Assembly: GCA_001029755.1 (NCBI GenBank)
Contig: CP011214.1
Coordinates: 493,767-557,766 of the forward strand
Direction of reading: 5' to 3'
Source: Candidatus Woesebacteria bacterium GW2011_GWF1_31_35
GTDB taxonomy: Bacteria; Patescibacteriota; Microgenomatia; UBA8517
Length of the DNA: 64,000 bases
The first letter of the stretch is position 1. Each line of letters starts with the position of its first letter. A program made the translations under genes and the position numbers. Below, piece after piece: positions 8,325 to 52,588 of this stretch. The notes under the pieces are model-generated. The model was not told where the DNA came from, did no database searches, and saw only the letters and a program-made list of their open reading frames with translations.

Positions 8325-8897
8325 ATGGAAGATTTATTTGTATTGGGAAAATTATTACCAACTGATAAAAGAGCCGTTGCTGTTGTCGGATCAAGAAAAA
8401 TGACCCCAAGGGGAATGGAATTAACTAAAAAATATGTTAAGGAATTAGTTAAGGAAAAAATAACTATAGTTTCAGGATTGGCCAGGGGAATTGATACAAT
8501 AGCACATATTACTGCATTGGAAAATGGAGGCAGAACTATAGCGGTTTTGGGATCAGGTTTAGATATTATTTATCCTCCAGAAAATAAAGAGTTGGCTGAA
8601 AGAATAACTAAATCTGGATGTTTAATTTCAGGATTTCCATACGATACTAAACCTGAAGGGAAAAACTTTTTAGCAAGAAACAGAATTATTGTAAAACTAT
8701 CTCTTGCAGTTTTGGTTATTGAAGGACTTCGAAGAAGTGGTACATTATCAACCGCCAGCCATGCTGGTAATGATGGAGTTGAAGTATTTGCAATTCCTGG
8801 TTCTGAAGCTTGTGACTACCTAATTGATAATGGAGCGACTGTTGCTAATAGTCCTAAAGATGTAATAAAGTATTTAAAACAAATAGAAAGTATTTAA
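8325..8897 (+). CDS. dprA: DNA-processing protein DprA/Smf (Rossmann-fold domain only)
   Basis: VVGSRKMTPRGMEL...VSGLARGIDTIAH...GSGLDIIYPPEN pattern of DprA. Confidence 0.8.
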   Translation: MEDLFVLGKLLPTDKRAVAVVGSRKMTPRGMELTKKYVKELVKEKITIVSGLARGIDTIAHITALENGGRTIAVLGSGLDIIYPPENKELAERITKSGCLISGFPYDTKPEGKNFLARNRIIVKLSLAVLVIEGLRRSGTLSTASHAGNDGVEVFAIPGSEACDYLIDNGATVANSPKDVIKYLKQIESI

Positions 8898-31454: not shown

Positions 31455-31481
31455 TTTTCTTCAAGTGTAAAATACACATAT

Positions 31482-31540
31482 GTCATTATCTGTAGGGACG
31501 CGTATTTTACCGCCCCACAATTTGATTTTTACTTCAAAGT
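31482..31540 (+). repeat. Copy A of a ~55-nt direct repeat (hairpin plus T-rich tail), left flank of the radical-SAM cassette
   Basis: GTCAT...GGGACGCGTATTTTACCGCCCCACAATTTGATTTTTACTTCAAAGT is about 80% identical to copy B at 34266-34328. Confidence 0.6.
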
Positions 31541-31668
31541 AACGCTACCCAAGGCTAGAAAGGAAAGAGAAATAGTTGAGCGAGACTGTTTAGGTGGGAT
31601 TTTAGCTTCAAGAGTGCCAGAAGATAAATACCACACACCTGAACTCACTATATATTAAGAAAATCTTT

Positions 31669-32796
31669 TCAGATAAAGACATCGTTAGTCTGAGGTGTAC
31701 GTATCATGTAAGGTAGAAGATTAATTCCTTGTTCGTGGCCATTAGCTAAAAGATGAAGCAACAAATTTGATTCATGTCGAATGCAATAAAATGGGCAAGT
31801 TTTTTTTGGGTTAATAGATTTAGCTTTTTCTACACGAGCAGTAGAATTCCAATAGTCTTTAAAATTTATTTCTATTGAACCGATTTTTTCGTTTTCATGT
31901 CCGCGTTTGTATGGGCAGGGGTAAATTCCTTTAGGAGTTACAACAGTTCTTAATTCAACACTTGGACAAGTTTGGTAATCTTTTGGTTGATTTGGAAACT
32001 TGTTTGTTAACAAGTAATCAGTGGATTTTGGCGAAATAACTTGAAATTCATTAGTATTTAATGCCTCCAACAATGGAGTTTGTCTTACTATCTCAGATTT
32101 AGTATTTATGGATAAGGGTATGAGGTTGTGGTGTGCATCTACTGCTGGTTTATATTCAAAATAATCACAACCAAGATCTCTGGCCAATTTAGCAGCAACA
32201 AAAAGTTCTTGCACATTTGTTTTAGGTCGAGCATTGGGTAAATTTCTTTCAATTAATAAAAAGCTATATCCAAGAATACCTTTTTTTACTTTTGCGAGAG
32301 TCTCAATGTTTGCAGTTGTTTTTGAGAATGAATTGAGAATGTGTGATGGCCGAAATTTAGAATATGTTTCCTGTGTCCCCGCATCCATTGAGACACGTGT
32401 CCACTGTACACATTCAGCTATTTCGTTGGTATATCTATTCATAAGTGAACCGTTTGTTGTAAGACCGACAGAAATTCCTAACTCATACGCTTTGATAATT
32501 GGTTCTGGCATCGATTTATGAGTAAGTGGTTCACCTCCACCAATGAATATAATTCCTTTAACATCTGTATCGTGAAATTCGTCTATCAATCCAGTCAATC
32601 TTTCGTCTTCAATACCACCTTTATTAAGAAGATTGGCGTTTATACATTCAGGACATGAGAAATTGCATGCCGTAGTCGGATCTAGTTCTACAACTAATGG
32701 ACCTGATGTTTGTCGTTTTTCAATATATTCTTCAACTCTAGGTAAGAGGTTCGGTTGTAGCATTTTATGTGTAAAATTTAATACTTCAATTGACAT
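31669..32796 (-). CDS. Radical SAM enzyme with Cys-rich C-terminal region
   Basis: CNFSCPEC (CxxxCxxC) cluster, GGGEPL SAM motif, extra C-terminal cysteines (CPSVEL, CPYKRG, CPFYC). Confidence 0.75.
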   Translation of the reverse strand: MSIEVLNFTHKMLQPNLLPRVEEYIEKRQTSGPLVVELDPTTACNFSCPECINANLLNKGGIEDERLTGLIDEFHDTDVKGIIFIGGGEPLTHKSMPEPIIKAYELGISVGLTTNGSLMNRYTNEIAECVQWTRVSMDAGTQETYSKFRPSHILNSFSKTTANIETLAKVKKGILGYSFLLIERNLPNARPKTNVQELFVAAKLARDLGCDYFEYKPAVDAHHNLIPLSINTKSEIVRQTPLLEALNTNEFQVISPKSTDYLLTNKFPNQPKDYQTCPSVELRTVVTPKGIYPCPYKRGHENEKIGSIEINFKDYWNSTARVEKAKSINPKKTCPFYCIRHESNLLLHLLANGHEQGINLLPYMIRTPQTNDVFI

Positions 32797-33865
32797 GGCT
32801 ATTTAATTTATTCACTATAACACCATCGTTCGATGGTTTTGTTACATAAACCTTAACAGGTAATTCTTTTAGGGAATTAGTGACTTGTTTTGTATTACAA
32901 TTTGGAACTAGCGCAAAAGTACACCCTCCCATGCCTGTACCAGTTAATTTTGCACCAATGGCACCATATTTTAGCGATCTTGAAATACACTCTTCAATGA
33001 GATTTGTTGAAACTCCCATATAATCACGCATTAGAGTGTGACAGTGTGAAATTGAAGATCCAAGCTTATTTGCATCAATTACTTTTCCATCTAGAATATT
33101 TTTCATTTCGTTTATAGCATCATTTGTTGTATTGACATATTTCATTATTAGAGTTTCCTTGTTTGCATATCTTATGCGTTTTTTTCTTATAACATCTGCT
33201 GTATTTCTTGGTGTGAGAGTATCGACAATCACTATATCAAATCCGTCAGGGAGAACAAATTTTTCAATATTTTTTGGGGGTATAGTTGAACTATCTAAAT
33301 ATATCAAACCACCAATTCCGCATGAATACATATCCATTTGACCTGCCCCTGTTCTTAACTCCTCGGACTCGATTTTATAAGCTAGATCGCAAATGGTTGT
33401 TGTGTCCAAAATTGATCCATAAAAGTTTGCAATCGCAGCAACACTAGCAACTGAAACTGCAGCACTGCTACTTAGTCCAGCTTTTGCAGGAAGATTGCTT
33501 GTAATCTCTATAGTAATTGGATATGTTTTAATACCTAAATCACTAATTACTTTTATTGCAGCATTTGTATAATCCAACACATGGTGTGAATAATTACCGA
33601 TTTGATCTTTTAATAAATCTATCTCAGAGTTTAATGAGCCTTTAGTTTTTAATTTGAATACATCATTATTGTTTGATACTGAAGCTTTAGTTTTTAAATC
33701 AATGGCACACAAAATCGAAGGACCTGTTATCCAGTCAATATCTTCTCCTGCCAAACAAATTCTTCCTGGCGTCGTGGCTTCAATTTCCTGAAACATTTTA
33801 TATAGATTTGGCAGGAATTTTGTCGTCCTTAAAAATTTGTGAATTGTTGTTTCCAGTGAGAACAA
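32786..33865 (-). CDS. GHMP-family sugar kinase (galactokinase-like signature)
   Basis: GRICLAGEDIDW resembles the galactokinase signature GRxNLIGEHxDY; PAKAGLSSSAA GHMP ATP-binding motif. Confidence 0.7.
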   Translation of the reverse strand: MFSLETTIHKFLRTTKFLPNLYKMFQEIEATTPGRICLAGEDIDWITGPSILCAIDLKTKASVSNNNDVFKLKTKGSLNSEIDLLKDQIGNYSHHVLDYTNAAIKVISDLGIKTYPITIEITSNLPAKAGLSSSAAVSVASVAAIANFYGSILDTTTICDLAYKIESEELRTGAGQMDMYSCGIGGLIYLDSSTIPPKNIEKFVLPDGFDIVIVDTLTPRNTADVIRKKRIRYANKETLIMKYVNTTNDAINEMKNILDGKVIDANKLGSSISHCHTLMRDYMGVSTNLIEECISRSLKYGAIGAKLTGTGMGGCTFALVPNCNTKQVTNSLKELPVKVYVTKPSNDGVIVNKLNSHVN

Positions 33866-34178
33866 GTTTTATAACAACAAAAATCGCGGTTTTATCGTTG
33901 GTGTTTGCAAAAGTGTGTATGCTATTTTCTACACGAATTAAGTCTCCCTTTTGCACAGTTTCCTTTTTTTCTGTTTCTTTTTCTAACCATCTTATTTCCA
34001 GAGACCCATCAATTATAAATATCAACTCTTCTACGACATTGTGCGAGTGCCATTCTTGGGTTGTTCCCGCAGGAATTTCATTATAGTGAAGTTCGTATTC
34101 TGGTTGAAGGTAATAGTCTACCTGGGTGCCATCAGGTTTTTTCCTATGAATAGCATTTAGTCGATTTATAATTTCCAT
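33798..34178 (-). CDS. Cupin-fold protein
   Basis: WHSHNVVEEL (HxH...E) and GDLIRVENSIHTFAN cupin motifs. Confidence 0.6.
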   Translation of the reverse strand: MEIINRLNAIHRKKPDGTQVDYYLQPEYELHYNEIPAGTTQEWHSHNVVEELIFIIDGSLEIRWLEKETEKKETVQKGDLIRVENSIHTFANTNDKTAIFVVIKLVLTGNNNSQIFKDDKIPAKSI

Positions 34179-34265
34179 TATTAAAAGCTGAGCCTAAGTT
34201 TACTACTTTTTGTTTGTAAAATCAAACCCCTATAGGGTGTGTTTAATCTGTTATAATTACGTTAT

Positions 34266-34328
34266 GTCATCGCTTTCTTGTGGGACACTCATTTCACCGT
34301 CCCAACTTTTGATTTTCACTTCAAGTTT
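34266..34328 (+). repeat. Copy B of the ~55-nt direct repeat, right flank of the radical-SAM cassette
   Basis: GTCAT...GGGACACTCATTTCACCGTCCCAACTTTTGATTTTCACTTCAAGTT; perfect GGGAC/GTCCC stem followed by a T-rich tract. Confidence 0.6.
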
Positions 34329-34450
34329 AAGATTCCGGAGCCAAATAAAGACAGGTTGATTTTAGAAAGAGATAATTTGGGAAGAATAATTCATTCAGAG
34401 CTTCTTTTTAACCAAATTAAAGAAGATGTAATTGATAGTTTATAAAAATT

Positions 34451-35083
34451 TTGTATAATCATTATATGATTAACGAGGAAGAACAAGGGACGAACTCTCA
34501 GCAATCAGAAAAACCATCTGCTTCAGAAATATTTAGTGGAAAGGATGTTGTAATTGGAAGAGAATTAGTAGAACTTCTTATTGCAGACGAGGTAGGAGTT
34601 CCTGTTTATTATCACAATTATCAGAATTTAGATAAAAAGATTAATGTAATGGTAGATAGAGAGGTGGGAAATGAAGACTATTCTGTAAGACAGAAAGAGG
34701 AAAATCATGACCAGCTTTTAGGAATAATTATTCCTACAGCTGATGCCAAAGACCAGTTTATATATATAGGTATCATGGAAGACGATTTTGTTTTTCAAGC
34801 AGGTAGCGATCTTCAAGCTGAATTTAACCCAGAGTCGAATGTTAGATATACATTTGGTTGGCAAAGATTTGGCGACAGAATTGCTCAGCATGAGAATGAT
34901 TCTACAACCCCAGAACGCTATAAATTAGAGATTCTGTTCAAAGCTCATGAAGACTCCCAAAGATTTGATACGAAAGTTTTGGAGGCAGTAGAAAAAAGAA
35001 GACAAATTCATGAAGCGATACGAAAATCGAGAACTGAAATAAGGCAAAATCTCAAAGACAAACTTTTTGGTGGATCTAGTTAA
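34451..35083 (+). CDS. Hypothetical soluble protein (island cargo)
   Basis: 210-aa ORF, acidic, with no recognisable motif. Confidence 0.45.
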   Translation: MYNHYMINEEEQGTNSQQSEKPSASEIFSGKDVVIGRELVELLIADEVGVPVYYHNYQNLDKKINVMVDREVGNEDYSVRQKEENHDQLLGIIIPTADAKDQFIYIGIMEDDFVFQAGSDLQAEFNPESNVRYTFGWQRFGDRIAQHENDSTTPERYKLEILFKAHEDSQRFDTKVLEAVEKRRQIHEAIRKSRTEIRQNLKDKLFGGSS

Positions 35084-35303
35084 CAATCTTCGTGTTAAAA
35101 TACTCTCATGTCAGCCTTAAAAGTCGGGATATACAGTTCACTATTCCAAAAATAGAATTTGCTTCATCTTTTATACTTCCGTTGCCTCGTAAAGCTAGGT
35201 TTATAACACAAAGAGATTGCTTGGGTAGAATTTTAAACTCAAAAATACCTCCAACTATATATAATTATCGGTCAACATAATAAGAATTTAAGGTGTAAAA
35301 TGT

Positions 35304-35852
35304 TTGTGTATGGAGGCACCATTTGGAATAATTTTTCTTAAAAAGGCAGAATTGTTTAATTTAGTTTCAAGGTTTGATAAACAATATGGTGGTTCGCCTA
35401 GCAATAATCCTTGGTTGATTGAAAAACAAATCTTAAGATGGACATATGGACACCATAAACATCTGGGTAGTCCAATAAAGACAGAGCATTTATCGTTAGG
35501 TTCTCAGAATAACAAACTTCATGATTTTAAAATGATTGATTCAAAAGGTGGACTGAGGTCGCAATTTAAATATTTAGAAAAAAACAGTTTAACTAAGCCT
35601 CTGGAAAACTTGGTTGTAAGGGGGTTTGCCAATTATTTTAACGAGTCAGAAGGACATAATGCTATTGTCATAAACAAAGATGGTTTACTTGTAGGAGAAG
35701 TAATTGCTGACATGGAAAAGGACAATATTTTTATTAAAGCAAATTATCTCTTTTATAGTCATATGATGGATCATCTTGGTGCCACTGTAATGATGATTGT
35801 TACAACAATAGGTCTGATAAAGTTATTTATCAGTTTTTTTTATGTCAAATAA
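35304..35852 (+). CDS. Hypothetical protein with C-terminal TM helix (island cargo)
   Basis: 182-aa ORF overlapping the next gene by 11 nt. Confidence 0.4.
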   Translation: MCMEAPFGIIFLKKAELFNLVSRFDKQYGGSPSNNPWLIEKQILRWTYGHHKHLGSPIKTEHLSLGSQNNKLHDFKMIDSKGGLRSQFKYLEKNSLTKPLENLVVRGFANYFNESEGHNAIVINKDGLLVGEVIADMEKDNIFIKANYLFYSHMMDHLGATVMMIVTTIGLIKLFISFFYVK

Positions 35853-36534
35853 AATTCAACCCATAACAGACTATTTTTTATCATTATCAGCTAATCCTAT
35901 TGTTAAGGCTCTTTCACAAATCAGCGTATTTACGGCACCAGTTAATTCACTTTTTTCTGGTGAATATAGTCGTCTTAAAGAAGAAGAACTCTTAACTGTT
36001 GTTCATTCGTTACATTCAAAAATTCAAACAATTGAGCAGAGGTTTATTGATAAGGACTTCTTTTCTTCATATGACGGAAAAAGAGCTTTTGGTATGGCAT
36101 TTTCATCTTTATTAAAGGATTCTAGAAAGCAAAAATTAGAAGCTATGTCCAATCTGTTGGTAAATCTGAGTTTAAAATCAAATGTGTCTTATGATGAACG
36201 ACTTTTATTTTTGGATATATTAGATAGTCTTAACCCGTTTCAACTTACTGTTTTAGGAAGAATATATGAATTTAATAAAGAAAATAGACCAAATTTAAGA
36301 AAAATAGAACCTTCTGGTATTGCAGATTATTTTGCAGATAAGGGAATTGATAGACAATTAACACTCCAAGCAATATCTATCCTTGCAAACAATTATATTT
36401 TAAATAGAGATTCTAGCCCTGTATTAGGAGGGGGAGGGTTAACCCATCATTTTACGGATTTTGGTGAAAAATTTTATATATTTATCTCAACAGTATTGGA
36501 TAAAAATAGTGAGTATCTAAAGATAACTAGTTAG
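35842..36534 (+). CDS. Hypothetical protein (island cargo; weak resemblance to Abi-type proteins)
   Basis: 230-aa ORF translationally coupled to the upstream gene; no confident motif. Confidence 0.4.
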   Translation: MSNKIQPITDYFLSLSANPIVKALSQISVFTAPVNSLFSGEYSRLKEEELLTVVHSLHSKIQTIEQRFIDKDFFSSYDGKRAFGMAFSSLLKDSRKQKLEAMSNLLVNLSLKSNVSYDERLLFLDILDSLNPFQLTVLGRIYEFNKENRPNLRKIEPSGIADYFADKGIDRQLTLQAISILANNYILNRDSSPVLGGGGLTHHFTDFGEKFYIFISTVLDKNSEYLKITS

Positions 36535-36748
36535 GTTTGATATCCAACAATTTTGACAATGTTGTATCCAATGCTCTGGCTATATTGTATGCTGTTCTAA
36601 TAGATATATTCCTTCCCTTTTCAATATCCCAGAAATATGCTCTATGTAAGTTTGATTTTTCAGCTAGTTGTTCTTGGGTCATTCCCTTTTCCTTGCGTAG
36701 CCATTCAATTCTTTCACCTAACTTTCTGTAAATAGGTTTGTAATTCAT
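36527..36748 (-). CDS. XRE-family helix-turn-helix transcriptional regulator
   Basis: LRKEKGMTQEQLAEKSNLHRAYFWDIEKG is a canonical XRE/Cro-CI HTH. Confidence 0.8.
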   Translation of the reverse strand: MNYKPIYRKLGERIEWLRKEKGMTQEQLAEKSNLHRAYFWDIEKGRNISIRTAYNIARALDTTLSKLLDIKPN

Positions 36749-36863
36749 ACCCTAAGGGTAGTAGATTCCAAAATAAATCTTTACCAGATATATCTTGCTT
36801 TTATAGTCGTTGGAGGCGTATTATCAAGATAACATGTTCTGTTATCAGAATACTTAGATAGAT

Positions 36864-37556
36864 ATGGAAGAAATACGATTTTCAAAAAATAATGCAAAAA
36901 AATTTAGAAATATTTGGCTTGTAAGTTTATTGCTCTTTGTAGTTTCTATAATAGGTATGCTTTCAAATATTGCCACCGATAATACTGGCACATATTTTGG
37001 TCTGTTTACGCTCATTTTATCCCTTTCTGTTATCGTTGGTTCTTTGTCATTTGTTATATGGATATACAAAATAGGAAATAAAATAATTAAGAATATTATT
37101 AAGATTCTTGGAATGCTAACGGGAAGTATATTTTTTCTTATGATTTTATGGATGATCCTTTTTCGCTATGCGATTGTTGATGGAAGTTCAATGGAGCCAT
37201 CATATAAACACAATGAAATATATCTTGTTAGTAAGTTCGCCCTCAAATCTAGTGATCCTAAACGAGGAGATGTAGTTGATTATTACTTTATTAATAAAAA
37301 TAATGAGAGGATGGGTAGAATAGTGGGTTTACCACACGAAACCATTCTTGTAGCCTCTGACGAGCTTACAGTTGACGGTAATAAGCTTGATGAACCTTAT
37401 GTTGATTGGAGTGAATGGACCAAGGGAAGAGAAGAAAACATCACCCTTAAAGACGGCGAGTTTCTAGTGCTTTTTGATAAAAGGGGTGGGGACATGCAAG
37501 TTATTAAAAAAGAAAACATAATAGGTAAATTTATATTCAAGCTATACGCTAAATGA
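36864..37556 (+). CDS. Signal peptidase I (S26 family)
   Basis: DGSSMEPS catalytic Ser box and GDVVDYYF; two N-terminal TM helices. Confidence 0.7.
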   Translation: MEEIRFSKNNAKKFRNIWLVSLLLFVVSIIGMLSNIATDNTGTYFGLFTLILSLSVIVGSLSFVIWIYKIGNKIIKNIIKILGMLTGSIFFLMILWMILFRYAIVDGSSMEPSYKHNEIYLVSKFALKSSDPKRGDVVDYYFINKNNERMGRIVGLPHETILVASDELTVDGNKLDEPYVDWSEWTKGREENITLKDGEFLVLFDKRGGDMQVIKKENIIGKFIFKLYAK

Positions 37557-38173
37557 AATCTATCTTCAAAAAGTTTTTTTCAGAAATAAAAAGAATGGCA
37601 GATAATTATAGTTCATTAATTTTAATACTGATTTTAATTGTGCTTATTGCTCCTTATGCATTTCAGTTAACAAACAAGTTAAAAAATAATTATGTTTTAA
37701 ATAAAAGGTTCAAGGTAGAACTGAGGGAAAGAGAAATTGAAAAGCTTAAACAAGAAAATGTTAATAACAAAATCAATAATCTAATCCAACAATACAATAT
37801 TGAAACACTTACGAGTGGTGGGTTTGTAAAACTATTATATGAATATTTGGATGCTAAATCAGATATTGAAAGATATTACAAAGATTATAACCTGTCTTGC
37901 GCAGACTTAGCCAATGGAGTGGAATATAAATCTGACTCCACTTTTTTTAATGATATAGACTTCTCTAGATTTACACGAGATATTGCTATTGAAAATTGTC
38001 AGATAGCTAATTCAACAAAAGGTCATTATGAACAATTTATTAAAGAAAAAGGTTTGATTGAAAAACTTATTTCTGAAAACCAAAATAATACAGATCTAGA
38101 AATCAGAGATTTTATATCAAACATTTCTAGACAATTAGTATCCATAAACTTAAAATTGAGTCTATTAGATTAA
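37553..38173 (+). CDS. Hypothetical membrane-anchored coiled-coil protein
   Basis: N-terminal TM, a coiled-coil stretch, 4-nt overlap with the signal peptidase gene. Confidence 0.4.
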   Translation: MKSIFKKFFSEIKRMADNYSSLILILILIVLIAPYAFQLTNKLKNNYVLNKRFKVELREREIEKLKQENVNNKINNLIQQYNIETLTSGGFVKLLYEYLDAKSDIERYYKDYNLSCADLANGVEYKSDSTFFNDIDFSRFTRDIAIENCQIANSTKGHYEQFIKEKGLIEKLISENQNNTDLEIRDFISNISRQLVSINLKLSLLD

Positions 38174-38180
38174 CGAAATT

Positions 38181-38810
38181 ATGAAAAAATATCTGTTGAT
38201 AATATTTTTAGGAGCCCTAACACTTTCTGTATTTACTTTTATTAATAGATCTAACCCAATTATTAATGTTAAAAATACAAACCAATCACCTTCTATAAAA
38301 GATAGTTCTCAAGCAGAATGCCCTTTTTTTGTAGATAAAAACTTTCCAAAAGAATACTTTTCTAATGTATTTAATGAAGTAATGGTGTCTTACCCTCCTT
38401 CTCTGATCACTTCCAATCAAGAAATAATTCCCATTAAAGAAAGATTCAATCCATTAAAAGAACCTTTTGGCGGTGAATTTTATACGATTCCTAAAGGAGC
38501 ATATCCTTGGACCGAAAGAAATTTTGATCTAGATAACGACGAGAAGAAGGAAAGGATTTTATCTGCAGATACTGCCATGAATCACACACCAAATTTGGCA
38601 GTAATTGTTAAGGATGGATACATAATTTATAAAACCAAGGGGGCAAATGTATATATAAGTGAGGTTGGTGACCATAATGGATTTTTTCTCCATGAAAATA
38701 CCGATTGGAATAGTGGAGAATATAAAACCACTAGGTATGTTCATAAGGACGAAAAATTCATTCCTGTTTGGTTTCAAACCTCTTGTGTTGTTAGACCACA
38801 AAGTGACTAA
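38181..38810 (+). CDS. Hypothetical secreted protein
   Basis: Signal peptide MKKYLLIIFLGALTLSVFTF. Confidence 0.4.
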   Translation: MKKYLLIIFLGALTLSVFTFINRSNPIINVKNTNQSPSIKDSSQAECPFFVDKNFPKEYFSNVFNEVMVSYPPSLITSNQEIIPIKERFNPLKEPFGGEFYTIPKGAYPWTERNFDLDNDEKKERILSADTAMNHTPNLAVIVKDGYIIYKTKGANVYISEVGDHNGFFLHENTDWNSGEYKTTRYVHKDEKFIPVWFQTSCVVRPQSD

Positions 38811-39227
38811 CTCCTTGTGTGTATAAGGACTACACATGTTTGTGCCCATCCTCAAGCATCCCATCAAGGCTAGAGTCATTTTCTACAAGCAAAACAACTT
38901 CAATGCAATATCAATGCAATTGCCTAGGCAAGGGCAAGGCTACGCCCTGTGCAAATGTAATGACTATATTGCTAAGTAGCAGGTTTGGTAATTGAACTAT
39001 ACCTACCCTCCATATTAATATTTTGGTTCCCTGTGGGTATTGATATTATTTGATAGATGAGATATATTGATATAGTCAAGAGAGATTGGAGATAGAAAAA
39101 TATACAGAAAGATCTCCAGTTTTCTCCATTACACAAAGTAATTAATACACTAATCATTTAGCACAGCCATTGTCCCAGCTCCATTTGAGCGTTTGACCAA
39201 GGCACCGCATTAAGATTCAAAATTTTT

Positions 39228-39245
39228 AAGACGGTGTCTTTTTTG
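39228..39245 (+). terminator. Intrinsic terminator-like hairpin (AAGAC-GGT-GTCTT followed by TTTTTT)
   Basis: 5-bp GC-containing stem and a 6-T run. It sits at the end of a 450-nt ORF-free GC-shifted segment, inside the 9-bp inverted repeat TTTGACCAA/TTGGTCAAA. Confidence 0.4.
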
Positions 39246-39261
39246 TTGGTCAAATATTTAT

Positions 39262-39444
39262 ATGATTAATGATACTAGTCAAGCTATATTAACAAGCCCA
39301 GAACCCCTTGTAGTGGCTCAAAAGTGTCCTGTGTGTAATGGTTTCGGAACTTTAAAATATGGATCTTTAATTTGTCATGGTTGTTCTGGTAAGGGTTACA
39401 TATTGATACCTAACAATATTAGTTCAAAAAAGAACAAACAATAG
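39262..39444 (+). CDS. Small DnaJ-type zinc-finger protein (two CxxCxGxG repeats)
   Basis: CPVCNGFG and CHGCSGKG. Confidence 0.45.
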   Translation: MINDTSQAILTSPEPLVVAQKCPVCNGFGTLKYGSLICHGCSGKGYILIPNNISSKKNKQ

Positions 39445-39456
39445 AAAGTTGGAATC

Positions 39457-40011
39457 ATGACACTATACAGAATTGAAGATGTTAAAAAGAAATATCCAAA
39501 TTGGTTTTCCGCCGATTCTGAATTAACTTATGATGAACAAAAATGGATATGGGAAAATTCACTGTTACCTGAAGGCAATAACAAAGGCTTAGAACAAGTA
39601 GGTAAACAAGATAGCACAAGTATTAGTCTTATTAGAAGTGTTAGTGGTATACGGAATCTTAAAGAAAATGTAAACGAAAACCGACAGAAAAATGAAGCAA
39701 TTAAGGATCTTCAAGATTACACATACAAAACCCCCCTTAAATTCATAGCGATAAAATTAGAAACCATATTTGGCATATGGGATAAAAAGCCTTTCCACTG
39801 GATATATATAGCAGAGAACTACACTCCTAAAGCAATAAATTCTGTTTTAAGAGAGATGAGAAAACGAAAAGAAAACGGAGGTATGCCATTAGAGATACCT
39901 GGTGCCTATTTTACTAAAGTATTAACAAAGTATCACTCCAAAAGAAAATTACCCAAACGAAAAGAGATTGCATATACCAATGGAGGCATCAAACAGCAAA
40001 ATAATGAATAA
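39457..40011 (+). CDS. Hypothetical protein (island)
   Basis: 184-aa ORF, basic C-terminus. Confidence 0.4.
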   Translation: MTLYRIEDVKKKYPNWFSADSELTYDEQKWIWENSLLPEGNNKGLEQVGKQDSTSISLIRSVSGIRNLKENVNENRQKNEAIKDLQDYTYKTPLKFIAIKLETIFGIWDKKPFHWIYIAENYTPKAINSVLREMRKRKENGGMPLEIPGAYFTKVLTKYHSKRKLPKRKEIAYTNGGIKQQNNE

Positions 40012-40178
40012 GTTAAAAGTTCTAAAACTTAATTTCTATTCGTGCGAAGGAAATGATTATAAACATGAGGTGAATAGTTTTTACTTCAATTTGTTTGACA
40101 ATATTTTAAGAGAAATACGACAAAAGTCATTGACAATAAAGTGTGATATAAATACACTAAAGTTAACTAAAGTATAGT

Positions 40179-40355
40179 ATGAATGATGAATATCTTACAT
40201 TAGAAGAAGTTTCAAAAAAACTAAAAGTGAATAAAATCACAGTTTACAGAATGGCAAAAAGGGGAAAAATCCCTGCATTTAAATTCGGAAAAGTATGGAG
40301 AGTTGATAATAAAAAGTTAGAAAGAATGATAGAAAGAAAATTAAATGGAAAATGA
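40179..40355 (+). CDS. Excisionase-family (HTH_17 / Xis-like) DNA-binding protein, 58 aa, not in the supplied ORF track
   Basis: Translation gives MNDEYLTLEEVSKKLKVNKITVYRMAKRGKIPAFKFGKVWRVDNKKLERMIERKLNGK. The LTxxEVxxxLxVxxxTVYRxxxxGxIPAxKxGxxWR pattern is diagnostic. It overlaps the recombinase start by 11 nt. Confidence 0.65.
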   Translation: MNDEYLTLEEVSKKLKVNKITVYRMAKRGKIPAFKFGKVWRVDNKKLERMIERKLNGK

Positions 40356-41976
40356 CAAAAAAATTGTAGCTATATATGCGAGGGTATCAACTGGAAGGCA
40401 GGAACAGGAAGCAACTATTGAATCTCAATTGGATGAAGTTAAAAGGAAAATTATAGAAGATGGACATATATTACCTGATGAAAATATCTTTATAGATGAT
40501 GGATGGTCTGGCGAACTTATAGCTAGACCAGACCTAGACAGAATGAGGGATTTTGCTTTGACGGGAAAATTTTCTGCTTTATATGTTTATGACAGGGGAA
40601 GATTATCAAGAAGATTTACTCATCAAGAAATAGTTATTGAGGAACTGTCCGATAAAGAAATTGGTTTTATTTCTCTTCATGATATTAATGCACTGACTCC
40701 AGAAGAACATGTTTTGCAAGCAATGCAGGGTGTATTTCACGAATATGAAAGAGTAAAAATTGTTGAAAGGATGAGAAGGGGGAAATTATTTAAAGCAAGG
40801 AACGGAATAGTAATTAGTGGCGATGCTTTGTATGGTTATAAGTATGTTAAAAAGACTGATACTACTCCTACACATTGGGCAATAGATGAAAACGAGAGCG
40901 AAGTGGTTAAGAAAATGTTTAGGTGGTTTGTGATAGATAAAATAGGCATTAACGCAATTATTAACAAGCTATCTGATGAGGGAATTCCAACAAAAAAAGG
41001 TAAGAGTAAACATTGGACTAAAGGACCAGTTAGTAGAATATTGTGTTGTGATACTTACTTTACTGGAGTGGCTTACTACAATAAATCAGAGTCAATTGTA
41101 AGTAAACGAAGGTTAAAGAATGAAAAGTATTTCAAAATCAAGAAAAATAGTCGTAAACAACGACCTAAAGAGGAATGGATTCCATTTGATGTGCCGATAA
41201 TTATAGAAGATAAATCTTTTTTTGATAGATCACTTCAACTATTAAATTACAACAAAAAATTTGCCAATAAGAATAAAAAATTTGACTACATTCTTTCAGG
41301 AAAATTTTACTGTGAACACGGCTTCCCAATGGTTGGAGATGGTAAACAAGGCAGTCAAAGATATTATCGTAGCAGTGATAAAGTTCGCAGGAACGAATTA
41401 AGAACTTGTGATTGTGAGGGGGTGAATGTTTTTGTTGTTGAGGGTCTTTGGTGGAAACATATTAAGGATATAATATCTAATCCTGATTTTATAAAACTGA
41501 AAATTAAAGAATATGTTGAATCAAGAGCAGGAGTTAATACATCATTTGAACAAGACATACTTATAAATAAAACAAAGATCTCTAATTTAACTGATCAGGA
41601 GTCAAAATTTGCACAAATGTATGCTGAGAATTTGATTGATCTTGATCAATTGAGAGGATTGATTAAACAAGTAAAAGATAGGAAATTCATATTTACACGG
41701 AATCTTAAAAAACTAGAAAGAATTAAACCAGTAAAAGTAAGAATTAACGATGAAGAAATATCTCTACTTTACGATAAGGCAAGAGAGGTATTACAATCAC
41801 AAGACTTTTCGGATAAAAATTTGGTGTTACGAGATTTAGTGAGTAAAATAGTATTAAAGAAAGGAGGAGAGGTAAATACATGGATAAATATACCAATAAA
41901 TACCCAATACTTGGAACATGGGACTGAGCGTAGGGATAGTAGGTCTTCCAAATGTGGGGAAGTCCACACTTTTTAA
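40345..41976 (+). CDS. Large serine recombinase (resolvase/invertase catalytic domain, recombinase domain and zinc ribbon)
   Basis: IYARVSTGRQE catalytic Ser motif, DRLSRR-like block (DRGRLSRR), GYKYV recombinase domain, Cys clusters; the 3' end overlaps ychF by 59 nt. Confidence 0.8.
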   Translation: MENDKKIVAIYARVSTGRQEQEATIESQLDEVKRKIIEDGHILPDENIFIDDGWSGELIARPDLDRMRDFALTGKFSALYVYDRGRLSRRFTHQEIVIEELSDKEIGFISLHDINALTPEEHVLQAMQGVFHEYERVKIVERMRRGKLFKARNGIVISGDALYGYKYVKKTDTTPTHWAIDENESEVVKKMFRWFVIDKIGINAIINKLSDEGIPTKKGKSKHWTKGPVSRILCCDTYFTGVAYYNKSESIVSKRRLKNEKYFKIKKNSRKQRPKEEWIPFDVPIIIEDKSFFDRSLQLLNYNKKFANKNKKFDYILSGKFYCEHGFPMVGDGKQGSQRYYRSSDKVRRNELRTCDCEGVNVFVVEGLWWKHIKDIISNPDFIKLKIKEYVESRAGVNTSFEQDILINKTKISNLTDQESKFAQMYAENLIDLDQLRGLIKQVKDRKFIFTRNLKKLERIKPVKVRINDEEISLLYDKAREVLQSQDFSDKNLVLRDLVSKIVLKKGGEVNTWINIPINTQYLEHGTERRDSRSSKCGEVHTF

Positions 41977-49448: not shown

Positions 49449-49985
49449 TTGTCAAGCCAACATAAAATATATAGAATGGCATTACCTATGGATATAACTT
49501 TTATTTCAGGCCAAACATTCAAAATTAAAGGTAGAACTGGTATTACTTTAACAGATCCAATTGGTCCAACAATAGAATCTTTAAATGGAGAAAAAAAGAC
49601 GTTTACAGGGCCGGGAGAATATGAAGTTTCTGGAATTTCAATAATTGGAATTTCAACAGATGATGGAACTTTATTTATTTATGAAGTGGACGGCTTAAGA
49701 ATTTGCCATGTTGGAAACTTAAAGAAAAAACTTCCAGAAAACAAATTATCATTTATTGGTGATATCGATATATTGTTAACTTCTATAGGACCTGAAACTA
49801 TTGAAATAATTCAACAAATAGAAAGTTATTATGTAATTCCATTTGATTATGAATCACAAGAACAACTTGATAAATTCTTAAAAGATAGTGGATTAACTGT
49901 AGAAAAAATGTCTAAATTTAGCCTTAAAAAAGAAGAAATAATTGAAGAGTCCTCTGCTCAAGTTATTGTCCTAGAGAAAAATTAA
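49449..49985 (+). CDS. Hypothetical protein
   Basis: 178-aa ORF with no confident motif. Confidence 0.4.
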   Translation: MSSQHKIYRMALPMDITFISGQTFKIKGRTGITLTDPIGPTIESLNGEKKTFTGPGEYEVSGISIIGISTDDGTLFIYEVDGLRICHVGNLKKKLPENKLSFIGDIDILLTSIGPETIEIIQQIESYYVIPFDYESQEQLDKFLKDSGLTVEKMSKFSLKKEEIIEESSAQVIVLEKN

Positions 49986-52588
49986 TGGCAGACATAAATC
50001 AAGTTAGAGTACCTCCGCACTCTGCCGAAGCCGAAGGAAGCGTCCTCGGAGCTCTTCTATTGGATAAAGATGCTGTTATAGCTGTTGCTGAATTTTTACT
50101 ACCTGAGGATTTTTACGATGAACGCAACAAAGAAATATATGAAGCAATGCTTACTTTATATGAAGAAAGAGTTCCAGTTGATGTTTTAACAGTAACTGAA
50201 AAATTAAAAAAGAATAAGAATTTAAAAAAAATAGGTGGTGCATCATATTTAACAGATATTGCCAATAAAGTTCCAACTGCAGCTCATGTTGAGCATTATG
50301 GAAAAATAGTTAAAGATTCTTCAGTTAAAAGAGCTTTAATGAAAGCTGCAAGTAGACTTGTTGATTTTTCAATGGATGAGGGAATGTCATCGGGAGATCT
50401 TTTGGATAGGGCAGAATCAGAAGTTTTCTCTTTAACTCAGAAACATCTAACTAAAGCCTTTACTTCTGTAAGAGATACTTTGGCTGAAAGTTTCGATAGA
50501 TTAGATGAACTTCATAAACAGGGAGAGGGTTTAAGGGGGGTATCAACTGGCTTTGAAGATCTTGATAATGCTTTAGCGGGAATGCAAAAATCGAATCTTT
50601 TAATATTAGCAGCTAGGCCGTCTGTTGGTAAAACTTCATTGGCATTAAACATTGCTCAACATGCAGCTGTAACTGATAAACGATCAGTTGGTTTTTTCTC
50701 ACTTGAAATGAGCAAAGAGGAATTAGTAGATAGACTTTTAGTTGCTCAAGCTGATATTGATGCTTGGAGATTAAAAACAGGAAAATTAACAGAAGAAGAT
50801 TTTACTAAACTATCAAATGCAATGGGAGAGTTAGCCGAAGCGCCTCTTTACATTGATGACACCCCAGCTCTTTCTATATTAGAGATGAGAACAAAAGCAA
50901 GAAGACTTCAGGTTGAACATGGGCTTGACCTTTTGGTTGTTGATTATCTTCAACTTGCAAGAAGTAGAAACTTGGAGAATAGGGTTCAGGAAGTTTCTGA
51001 AATTTCACAAGGACTTAAAAACTTAGCAAGAGAACTTAAAGTTCCAGTTTTAGCTCTATCTCAACTTTCAAGAGGTGTAGAATCAAGGGGAGTAAAAAAG
51101 CCCCAATTATCGGATTTGAGAGAGAGTGGATGTCTTTTGGGGGATACTTTAATAACTCTTTATAAATCAGGCGAAAGAGTCAGAATGGATTCATTAGTTG
51201 GAAAGACAAATTTCAAAGTTTTGGGTATGAATGATAATTTTGAGATTGTACCAGTAACTGTTTCAAAAGTTTTTGAAAGTGGCAAGAAATTATCTTATAA
51301 ATTAATACTTAAAAGTGGGAGAATCGTCTTTGCATCGGGAAATCATCCTTTTTACAAACTTACGGGTTGGGAAAGACTTGATAAACTTAAAGTTAAAGAT
51401 AACATTGCTGTTCCTAGAAAAATTATTAATAAGATAAACTTAAAATCTGCACTTTCTGATTCACGCCTGATTTTACTTGCTCATTTAATTGGCGATGGAT
51501 GCTTTGTTAAAAGACAACCTTTACATTATACAAATTCAGAAATGAAACTTATTAAGATTGTAGAGAAGTCTGCATTAAAGGAATTTAATATAGTTCCTAG
51601 AATTATTAAACAAGAAAATTGGTACCATATCTATCTTTCTTCTAAAGAAAAATTAGCAAGGGGAAGAAGAAACCCAATTGTTAAGTGGTTGGATGAGGAA
51701 TTAAATATTTATGGACAAAGATCAAGAGAAAAAATCATTCCAGATATTGTTTTCCAACAAAATGACAAAAAAATATCATTATTTCTAAAACATTTATGGT
51801 CAACTGATGGATGTATTTATGTTTATAAAGGAAAAGATAAGAGAAAAGTTACTCTTTATTACGCTTCGGGAAGTAGAATATTAGCTGAACATGTATCACA
51901 TTTACTCTTAAGACTTGGAATTATTTCAACGATAACTACTTCAAAAAAGAAAGGTTATGAAGATATATATAATGTTCAAATTCAAGGTAAAGAAAATCAA
52001 ATCAAGTTTATTAGAAAAATAAATTTTGTCGGTATAAAGGCTAATAAATCAATAGAAGCACTTTTATTTTTAAAAAGAATTAAATCAAACCCAAATAATG
52101 ATGTAATTCCAAAAGAAATTTGGGAATATATTGAAAGTATTAGAAGAGAAGAGTGTTTAACAACAAGGGAATTTCATAAAAAAATGGGTTGGGCATATAG
52201 TGGAACACAAAGACATGGAAATGGTGTAGGAAGAGAAAGATTAGATAAAATTGCAAAAATATTAGAGGATAAATATTTATCAAATTTAGCAAACTCAGAT
52301 TTATACTGGGATGAAATAGCAAGTATTGAAAAAATTGGAATTAAAAAAGTATATGATCTGACCGTACCTAAATATTCAAATTTTGTTGCAAATGACATAT
52401 TAGTTCATAACAGTATAGAGCAAGACTCTGACGTCGTTATGTTTTTATGGCGCGAAGATGATGAAAAGATTGAAAATATTAGACTTGATGTTGCAAAACA
52501 CAGGAATGGTCCTTTAGCTTCAGTTCCATTATTCTTTAAAGGAGACAGAATAAAGTTCTATGCAAGAGATGTAAAAAGTGGGAAATAA
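49985..52588 (+). CDS. dnaB: Replicative DNA helicase DnaB interrupted by an intein
   Basis: DnaB N-domain, Walker A (ARPSVGKTS) and H4 motif (SQLSRGVESR). The extein resumes with SIEQDSDVVMFLWRED after a 427-aa insertion. Confidence 0.9.
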   Translation: MADINQVRVPPHSAEAEGSVLGALLLDKDAVIAVAEFLLPEDFYDERNKEIYEAMLTLYEERVPVDVLTVTEKLKKNKNLKKIGGASYLTDIANKVPTAAHVEHYGKIVKDSSVKRALMKAASRLVDFSMDEGMSSGDLLDRAESEVFSLTQKHLTKAFTSVRDTLAESFDRLDELHKQGEGLRGVSTGFEDLDNALAGMQKSNLLILAARPSVGKTSLALNIAQHAAVTDKRSVGFFSLEMSKEELVDRLLVAQADIDAWRLKTGKLTEEDFTKLSNAMGELAEAPLYIDDTPALSILEMRTKARRLQVEHGLDLLVVDYLQLARSRNLENRVQEVSEISQGLKNLARELKVPVLALSQLSRGVESRGVKKPQLSDLRESGCLLGDTLITLYKSGERVRMDSLVGKTNFKVLGMNDNFEIVPVTVSKVFESGKKLSYKLILKSGRIVFASGNHPFYKLTGWERLDKLKVKDNIAVPRKIINKINLKSALSDSRLILLAHLIGDGCFVKRQPLHYTNSEMKLIKIVEKSALKEFNIVPRIIKQENWYHIYLSSKEKLARGRRNPIVKWLDEELNIYGQRSREKIIPDIVFQQNDKKISLFLKHLWSTDGCIYVYKGKDKRKVTLYYASGSRILAEHVSHLLLRLGIISTITTSKKKGYEDIYNVQIQGKENQIKFIRKINFVGIKANKSIEALLFLKRIKSNPNNDVIPKEIWEYIESIRREECLTTREFHKKMGWAYSGTQRHGNGVGRERLDKIAKILEDKYLSNLANSDLYWDEIASIEKIGIKKVYDLTVPKYSNFVANDILVHNSIEQDSDVVMFLWREDDEKIENIRLDVAKHRNGPLASVPLFFKGDRIKFYARDVKSGK
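51131..52411 (+). mobile_element. Intein (Hint domain with LAGLIDADG homing-endonuclease module) in the DnaB helicase domain
   Basis: N-terminal splice junction RESG|CLLGDTLI, LAHLIGDGCF LAGLIDADG motif, C-terminal junction ILVHN|S; in frame with dnaB. Confidence 0.8.

Follow-up and report, generated by a model that had tools for sequence, protein, structure and literature searches.

Genomic setting of the gene-free segment

The DNA under study (the window, 64,000 nt) is chromosomal DNA of Candidatus Woesebacteria, a member of the Candidate Phyla Radiation (CPR)/Patescibacteria, and the subject of this work is a 450-nt gene-free segment within it (38811–39260). The region is flanked by the housekeeping genes topA, glyA, proS, dnaX, recR, cysS, ychF, ssb and dnaB, and the segment sits in a block of mostly unannotated genes, the end of which is formed by an HTH_17 excisionase-like gene and the gene for a 543-aa large serine recombinase; the latter overlaps the start of ychF, the integrase stop codon being located 58 nt inside it. 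Our analysis gives a slightly better than even chance that this segment serves a phage-derived integrative island as its central control region, in which a DNA platform is followed by a promoter and then by a leader RNA that ends in a terminator.

Homologs of the 209-aa protein encoded directly upstream (g209; 52–81% identical) were found in other CPR contigs, and further loci were added by scanning genome and metagenome collections. The g209 protein, the N-terminus of which reads as hydrophobic and signal-peptide-like in the alignment, was in its homologs mostly followed by a stretch of 245–675 nt without a called gene. These noncoding stretches align across 12 islands, and the alignment divides the segment into three parts. 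The conservation in 12 independent loci shows, at the level of sequence, that the segment is more than a product of chance. The platform is missing in L002 (position 1384; one contig of a metagenome-assembled genome, GC 0.45), where the stop codon of the g209 homolog directly abuts secY and the ribosomal-protein operon; this arrangement represents a decayed remnant or else a chimeric assembly.

The first-pass annotation of this DNA had described the segment as free of open reading frames (ORFs) and had left room for an overlooked coding sequence. No ORF longer than 61 aa is indeed present inside it, and coding is ruled out for the 5' half (38811–39035), all six frames of which are interrupted by stop codons in each of the 12 homologous copies. 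The GC shift reported at the same time is real (0.38–0.41 over 38700–39000 against about 0.31 in the window) but confined to the 5' half. Two weak peptide matches to the YchF N-terminus (38980–39006 on the minus strand, VGIVQLPNL vs VGIVGLPNV, E = 0.8; 39160–39201 on the plus strand, STAIVPAPFERLTK, E = 0.03) were considered as a coding signal and judged probably to be chance because all frames carry stops in the homologs. No tRNA or tmRNA was found near the segment, and no DNA similarity to GenBank phages was detected.

The upstream DNA platform

The properties of the 5' part (38811 to about 39035) point to a double-stranded DNA platform, neither RNA nor gene. Its folding z-scores were about 0 on both strands in the 12 loci (−0.4 and −0.1 in the window for 226 nt, relative to shuffles), and RNAalifold, whether or not the viral copies described below were included, produced either no consensus structure or a single minus-strand helix of 3 bp; what is conserved in the platform is primary sequence and spacing. 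The conserved blocks are four boxes, A to D (Table 1), of which B and C are separated by a spacer of fixed length (26–27 nt) and variable sequence, often containing an inverted copy of the repeat motif. A long-range pairing between box A and the stretch that follows box C, visible by eye in some loci in shifting registers, was dropped, and a sigma-54-like reading of box D together with TTGCT was inconsistent across the loci. In L006 a cassette of ~8 kb begins right after box B, replacing boxes C and D, the promoter, the leader and the first downstream gene.

Upstream of box B lies an array of the motif WWRRCAAW with starts 10–12 nt apart, present in three copies in the window, four in L040 and L013 and five in L039 and L011. 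The tandem CAATGCAAT(A/T) copies reported by the first-pass annotation (two exact ones at 38901 and 38912, 11 nt apart) belong to this conserved array with its 11-bp period and 2–5 copies per locus, so that the earlier proposal of an iteron region is right in part, with these repeats in place of the TTGATA copies treated below. Phased neighbour pairs numbered 20 in the 12 loci against 0.15 expected from dinucleotide shuffles, a contrast which is overstated because the loci are related to one another and the motif was defined with the data already in view. Even so, copy-number changes of one helical turn at a time are characteristic of arrays that bind a protein, as this one would. The GC-rich hairpin AGGGC..GCCCT mentioned earlier is present at 38931–38948 but not conserved in the related loci.

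An exact search with box C (AATTGAACTATACCTACCCT) retrieved one viral contig, L047, in which the 18-nt pattern ATTGAACYAYACCTACCC is matched exactly, and a shorter search recovered a second contig from the same sample, L055, among chance matches. Both are IMG/VR contigs of ~41–42 kb, in which boxes B, C and D occur at the same spacing as in the islands within a divergent intergenic region of ~580 nt, and the phased repeats are absent. On one side of this core is a leftward cluster of genes for a 183–185-aa protein (45–130 nt from the start of the core), a 527–531-aa protein with a Walker-A-like GAGKT recognized by eye, and a 631–644-aa protein with a weak match to the portal family phrog_64 (E = 3e-4); on the other side there is a rightward set of small genes. 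Such a location corresponds to the terminase/early-gene position of the zinc-ribbon phages described below, and the terminase annotation itself is weak: the 527-aa protein of L047 had no match in tblastn against phages and in a PDB sequence search. The islands swap their integrase type (serine or tyrosine) and their downstream genes, and the constancy of the core throughout this exchange of modules suggests that its partner comes from a phage or from the host. The intergenic regions of the two contigs (5300–5700 in L055 and 1110–1500 in L047) are also filled with repeats of a 12-nt period (TGGTCTTGACCT, GGTCATGGCTAT), many TGATCA/GATC sites and a repeated CCTACAAG, reminiscent of pac or origin regions.

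Predicted promoter, leader RNA and terminator

The middle part of the segment holds a predicted sigma-70-type promoter (TTGATA-17-TATATT, 10 of 12 consensus positions in a promoter scan) with a start near 39076. Its equivalents are found at the same position in eight loci, as TTGACA or TTGACT followed after 15–18 nt by a TAnnnW hexamer, and three loci have an extended −10 of the TGn-TATAAT type instead. Because matches of this kind are as frequent in this AT-rich region as in its shuffles (19 vs 16.9), the case for the promoter rests on positional conservation together with the features downstream. The three TTGATA copies previously taken for iterons do exist (39040, 39050 and 39067) and their clustering is locally unusual, the whole window having 37 TTGATAKW sites on both strands, but they are not kept in the other loci, the conserved one being the −35 box only.

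The third part is a predicted structured leader RNA with the same architecture in six loci (the window, L039, L011, L007, L040 and L003) and shorter variants in L013 and L030. A noncoding RNA of ~400 nt had been suggested here; a structured plus-strand RNA ending at the terminator is indeed predicted, but with a length of about 170 nt and a promoter of its own. The plus-strand folding z-scores in the six loci were −6.25, −3.09, −3.34, −3.41, −2.79 and −5.42, in each case stronger than on the minus strand (−6.25 against −2.32 in the window). The minimum-energy folds have in common a long 5' hairpin (stem I), a conserved single-stranded motif (ACUAAUCA in the window, written AAUACUAAUCA in the six-locus fold), a GGC/GCC hairpin, which is missing in the window, a GCUC/GAGC hairpin and a composite terminator. 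For the 3' half RNAalifold gave 24 pairs, with 92% of the cells pairing against 30–47% when the partners were slid; several pairs are G.U in some of the loci, one of them in four out of six, and these would be C.A mismatches on the minus strand. A pseudoknot between loop and linker (GAUUG/UAAUC) was rejected as not maintained in L040 and L003.

The terminator hairpin described earlier, AAGAC-GGT-GTCTT followed by T6, is there, but the conserved stem is the longer GGCACCGC...GACGGTGTC: GGCACCGC pairs with GACGGUGUC, followed by U6, in all six loci, with a C-G to A-U double change in L007 and L003 and with variant terminators in L013 and L030. A simple terminator scan of the segment reported nothing, because the apical loop is long. 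The inverted repeat TTTGACCAA/TTGGTCAAA does enclose the terminator, as had been noted, but its proposed role as a recombinase binding site is not supported by the way in which the arms vary: they pair through G.U or U.G in L039, L007 and L011 and, in L003, with a different sequence, which argues for a plus-strand RNA helix instead of a palindrome in DNA. The 3' arm of this helix is situated beyond the U-run and right beside the point where translation of the following gene would start, with a gap of 7 nt in the window and of 0 nt in L003, L007 and L040.

The Rfam scan proposed as a check gave no match in the segment at gathering thresholds, and with E-value thresholds the best matches (E = 4–7.5 at 11–17 bits) stayed far below the gathering scores, so that no Rfam family matches the leader. 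A covariance model of the leader run over 36 loci and 15 viral loci found its own six training sequences only. Judged by the absence of an Rfam match, the leader would represent a previously undescribed RNA family.

The downstream operon and its phage counterparts

The gene following the leader encodes Zn60, a small DnaJ-type zinc ribbon protein, and the leader is present exactly in those loci that bear Zn60 and absent where Zn60 is absent. Homologs of Zn60 were found in 13 IMG/VR viral contigs, in at least 10 of which the gene comes first behind a promoter of the TTGAC type, with a leader that is short or missing and without a terminator. Because the phage Zn60 directly follows its promoter, leader plus terminator have the look of an insertion that is specific to the islands and placed between promoter and first gene. 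Next to the phage Zn60 comes a lambda-O-like/DnaD-like replication initiator (E = 1e-21 to 4e-23), and in the divergent direction lie a gene resembling a small terminase and one for a clear large terminase (E = 8e-38). The 254–255-aa proteins after Zn60 in the islands L039 (L039_255) and L007 (L007_254) are homologous to this phage initiator. The g184 protein of the window showed no relation to the O-like initiators and constitutes a separate family; its AlphaFold model (pLDDT 55) was too poor for use. By its predicted gene content, the right-hand operon combines a phage early/replication operon with the genes for an excisionase-like protein and the integrase.

In the contigs L074–L085, inspection of ~40 nt around the Zn60 start showed that the gene begins a few nucleotides from the −10 box and is nearly leaderless. 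The 5' coding end of the phage Zn60 is purine-rich (GACAGACAGATAG; AGATTGAAGC in L083) and is similar to the opening 30 nt of the leader in the islands; the 5' end of the leader may be derived from it.

Island boundaries and attachment sites

The limits of the island were set by comparison with the empty site of a close relative, L087 (YchF 98% identical), in which an ABC-3 transporter gene is followed by 25 nt and then by ychF. The blastn homology to this empty site ends at 31496 and restarts at 41930, with a 5-nt overlap GTAGG, and the right end of the island rebuilds ychF with a new start, MGLS instead of MSLS; the attP as reconstructed is CTTGGAACATGGGACTGAGCGTAGGGACGCGTATTTTACCGCCCC. An element of ~140 nt recurs within the island and at the left end of the island in L007. 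The copies at 31480, at 34265 and in L007 open with a ychF 5' remnant (ATGTCATTATCTGTAGGGAC-like), the one at 35110 being a degenerate form, and the ~100 nt after the remnant are conserved in all of them; the remnant is followed by a GGGAC...GTCCC hairpin with compensatory changes and then by a conserved stretch translating as FKIPEPNKDRLILERDNLGRI. These copies appear to be the active attL and two relic ones and indicate repeated tandem insertion at ychF. The youngest unit, of 6.8 kb, encodes the serine integrase, the HTH_17 protein and an HTH_3 protein, and produced no structural-gene matches in PHROG and Pfam scans. On our reading of their sequences, the islands together form a mosaic family of integrative elements that CPR bacteria carry and that derive from phages. 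The leftmost inserted part of the window (31669–34178) has minus-strand genes for radical-SAM, GHMP-kinase and cupin proteins and no integrase of its own, and looks like the cargo of an older, decayed insertion.

Proposed control of the island operon

According to the explanation that we favour, the platform would be bound by one or more trans-acting proteins directly upstream of the rightward 'early' promoter of the island, and most transcripts would stop at the T-run after about 170 nt. In the RNA that reads through, the outer helix would pair the sequence immediately upstream of the Zn60 start and so sequester the translation start. As a result of termination and of the sequestered start, the operon of Zn60, g184 (replaced by the lambda-O-like initiator in sister islands), the excisionase-like protein and the integrase is proposed to be silent until some factor overrides termination; an infecting helper-type phage would be one possible source of such a factor. 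From these features we infer that the segment is transcribed and gates the operon, and likewise what may bind the platform and to what effect. As to the function of the platform itself, an upstream regulatory or recognition site for the promoter is a reasonable possibility held at clearly less than even confidence, a helper-phage packaging signal is somewhat doubtful and a replication origin unlikely, with other functions taking up the remainder.

Several points weigh against this explanation, in addition to the overstated contrast for the phased pairs. The promoter, the start site and the termination are predictions. The covariation is weak: two pairs change on both sides, with a score equalled in 38 of 500 shuffles and from six sequences, and stem I lies outside any common alignment, its support being per-sequence folding. 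Neither an alternative antiterminator pairing nor an antitermination factor was found. No island protein could be linked to the platform, the conserved HTH_3 repressor having another palindrome at its own promoter, and the repeat array persists where the downstream genes belong to another family, which argues against a cognate initiator.

Alternative explanations

The platform, and above all its B–C–D core, might be a cos- or pac-like packaging signal of a helper phage, the islands being satellites of phages of the L047/L055 type and the leader keeping them silent until the helper arrives. We regard this as doubtful. It would account for the occurrence of the core in two IMG/VR contigs beside a putative terminase/portal cluster, at a position where other Zn60 phages have TerS, TerL and portal genes, for the constancy of the core when integrase types and downstream families are swapped, and for islands that lack PHROG/Pfam structural-gene matches and in which the cargo ahead of the repressor is defence-like (Fic, SLFN/AlbA_2, SocA, HEPN, methyltransferase). 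The two phage examples, however, come from one sample, have genes with a weak terminase annotation and lack the phased repeats, and the known satellite marker genes were not found in the islands.

An iteron-type origin of the excised island, with initiator-bound repeats upstream of a replication operon as in iteron plasmids, is less probable than the packaging signal and on the whole unlikely. A phased direct-repeat array of variable copy number, a feature expected of an iteron origin, is present, with an inverted copy between boxes B and C, and it lies directly upstream of an operon that in sister islands and phages encodes the lambda-O-like/DnaD-like initiator. A cognate initiator co-varying with the repeats was not seen, though: the window (g184 family) and L039 (O-like family) share near-identical repeats beside unrelated proteins. 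The platform is also kept in islands without Zn60, the repeat units are short (8–11 bp) and the two phages share B–C–D but not the repeats. Inspection, without a formal scan, revealed no conserved DnaA box or AT-rich unwinding element; the closest DnaA-box-like site in the window, a 7/9 match (TGTGGGTAT), is not conserved elsewhere. The partition role suggested along with the origin found no backing, as no Par-family match was obtained among the island proteins scanned.

The ~170-nt unit could alternatively be an independent gene for a trans-acting small RNA, e.g., of the immunity type known in P4 and P1. Its own promoter and terminator and the conserved fold speak for this, and the conserved single-stranded ACUAAUCA and the loop GAUUGAAGCA could pair with targets; but the strict co-occurrence with the directly abutting Zn60, the outer helix that reaches the start codon, the lack of an Rfam match to c4 or other phage small RNAs and the failure to find a conserved complementary target make it an improbable explanation. 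A pairing of the leader motif with the Zn60 start (9/10 match) had been tried and was rejected, since it is confined to the window.

The remaining candidates, one large noncoding RNA of 450 nt or a recombination site derived from att, are highly improbable. The whole segment does fold with z = −3.2 on the plus strand, but this signal comes from the 3' 184 nt only (z = −0.4 for the 5' 226 nt), RNAalifold left the 5' half empty on both strands, and the promoter is in the middle of the segment. The attP-derived region suggested by the first-pass annotation is rejected because the segment lies well inside the youngest unit and the true att sites were mapped elsewhere, 7.3 kb and 2.7 kb away; the segment is not at a boundary between island and chromosome and contains no crossover. 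The reverse complement of box C resembles the attR crossover region at 13 of 15 positions (GAGGGTAGGTATAGT), a likeness on the opposite strand that was equalled in 25 of 500 shuffles (p about 0.05); it is marginal and probably chance.

Comparison with known systems and significance

In the late control of phage lambda, transcripts from the promoter pR' end as 6S RNA at the terminator tR', which is overridden by Q. The segment resembles this system in having a strong promoter and a terminated RNA of less than 200 nt ahead of a silent temperate-element operon that needs read-through, all of which is here predicted. It differs in the genes gated, which are for replication, excision and integration, and in a leader without sequence or Rfam relation to 6S. 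No Q homolog or Q-binding element was identified; the match of Zn60 to the Q-like family phrog_127 is marginal (E = 0.009), and Zn60 is located downstream of the terminator. In the immunity of satellite P4 the PLE transcripts are terminated early and the CI RNA is involved, with c4-type RNAs in P1, P7 and N15. The likeness consists in a structured leader of a small integrative element, where premature termination (here inferred) controls a replication operon; unlike P4 and c4, the leader has no internal complementarity of the seqA/seqB/seqC kind and no Rfam c4 match, and the islands have no P4 marker genes.

Short phased repeat arrays bound by proteins are known from the 11-bp repeats of the pMV158 'bind' locus, from R1 parC and from the R sites of lambda cosB. 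The platform is similar to them in its 2–5 direct repeats one helical turn apart, with variable copy number and an adjacent promoter, but the repeat sequence is unrelated and the island is without a Rep_2, ParR or ParM match or a confident terminase gene. Satellites may carry the cos site of their helper, such as P4 with that of P2 and the phage-inducible chromosomal islands (PICIs) of the cos type. Similarly, the islands have an integrase and no structural genes and share a short noncoding block with phages, in which it stands beside putative packaging genes. In contrast to P4, PICIs, cfPICIs and PLE, the hallmark genes (e.g., Sid/Psu/Delta/alpha; Stl, Pri-Rep, TerS/Ppi/Cpm) were not found in PHROG and Pfam scans of the island proteins.

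The kinds of parts are familiar, but neither Rfam nor the searched literature describes this RNA, the phage-shared platform or the arrangement with an inserted terminator. The islands have the outline of phage satellites, i.e., an integrase and regulators, small size and no full virion gene set, and no CPR satellite is described in the literature searched. That the 6.8-kb ychF islands would be the first phage satellites of CPR/Patescibacteria, with B–C–D as a helper recognition signal for packaging or activation and the leader/terminator as a new RNA lock opened by the helper, is a speculative and rather unlikely proposal. If true, it would extend phage-satellite parasitism to ultra-small bacteria, and the gating, if true, would be a case of a phage early operon domesticated through insertion of a terminator cassette. 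Very little work has been done on mobile elements and gene regulation in CPR bacteria, and the region defines a conserved DNA platform common to small islands and phages of these bacteria. The comparison also maps a serine-integrase att site to the 5' end of ychF, a conserved part of the gene, where there is evidence that tandem insertion took place repeatedly, and the pair of att site and integrase may have practical interest.

Feature coordinates and variable island genes

Table 1. Features of the ychF island and its gene-free segment (window coordinates unless another locus is named).
Feature	Position	Strand	Remarks
Composite integrated island, 10.4 kb	31497–41929	+	inserted in ychF codons 5–6
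Crossover GTAGG, 5 nt	31492–31496 (attL) and 41930–41934 (attR)		from the empty-site comparison; 10013–10017 in L087
Repeated element, ~140 nt	31480–31660 (active attL), 34265–34450, 35110–35290; 4555–4740 in L007		left end of the island in L007
Relic attL-like repeat	35110–35290	+	left end of the youngest unit
Youngest unit, 6.8 kb	about 35134–41929		gene-free segment well inside
g209, 209 aa	38181–38810	+	homologs precede the conserved gap
Box A (TGTGTGTATAAGGACTACAC)	38816–38835		conserved; direct-repeat relative of box B (alignments A1 and A3)
Phased WWRRCAAW array	38901–38933		starts at 38902, 38913 and 38925 (11–12 nt apart)
Box B (CTGTGCAAATGTAATGACTATAT)	38947–38969		conserved in islands and viral contigs L047 and L055
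Inverted copy of the repeat motif (ATTGCTAAG...)	38968–38981		inside the B–C spacer
Box C (AATTGAACTATACCTACCCT)	38990–39009		most conserved block
Box D (ATATTTTGGTTCC; consensus AAATTTGRAAYC)	39018–39030		9–10 nt after box C
Predicted sigma-70-type promoter	39040–39068	+	−35 TTGATA 39040–39045; 17-nt spacer; −10 TATATT 39063–39068
Predicted leader RNA, about 170 nt	39076–39245	+	six loci; no Rfam match
Stem I, long 5' hairpin	39080–39126	+	conserved AUUGRAGC/GCUCCA segment
Conserved single-stranded ACUAAUCA	39147–39156	+	
GCUC/GAGC hairpin	39178–39190	+	
Outer helix TTTGACCAA/TTGGTCAAA	39192–39200 with 39246–39254	+	encloses the terminator
Predicted intrinsic terminator	39201–39244	+	stem GGCACCGC 39201–39208 with GACGGTGTC 39230–39238; apical helix; T6 39239–39244
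Zn60, 60-aa DnaJ-type zinc ribbon	39262–39444	+	two CxxCxGxG motifs; first gene of the right-hand operon
Rest of the putatively gated operon	39457–41976	+	g184, small ORF, HTH_17, serine recombinase
g184	39457–40011	+	
ORF of 65–69 aa	39968–40177 as listed	+	called as 65 aa, ~39980–40177
HTH_17 excisionase-like protein	40179–40355	+	
Large serine recombinase, 543 aa	40345–41976	+	

Beside the conserved module the islands carry variable cargo (5733–9460 in L003, 10940–17827 in L006, 4660–6280 in L040 and 1098–2414 in L041), which looks defence- or toxin-like and includes Fic, YaaC, HEPN, an MmeI-like methyltransferase, SocA/Panacea and SLFN/AlbA_2. The divergent region between the HTH_3 repressor and an S26-peptidase-like gene is near-identical across the islands (36749–36863 in the window, 6036–6130 in L007 and 2693–2787 in L041, with further copies at 8679–8772 in L006 and 3075–3138 in L042). 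It contains the perfect palindrome AGATATATCT within TTTACC-N16-TATAGT, which is probably the operator of the HTH_3 repressor. Outside of the island, the gene of the DnaB helicase (49985–52588; 867 aa) is interrupted by an intein with a LAGLIDADG endonuclease, while the relatives L087 and L089 have an intein-free DnaB of 440 aa.

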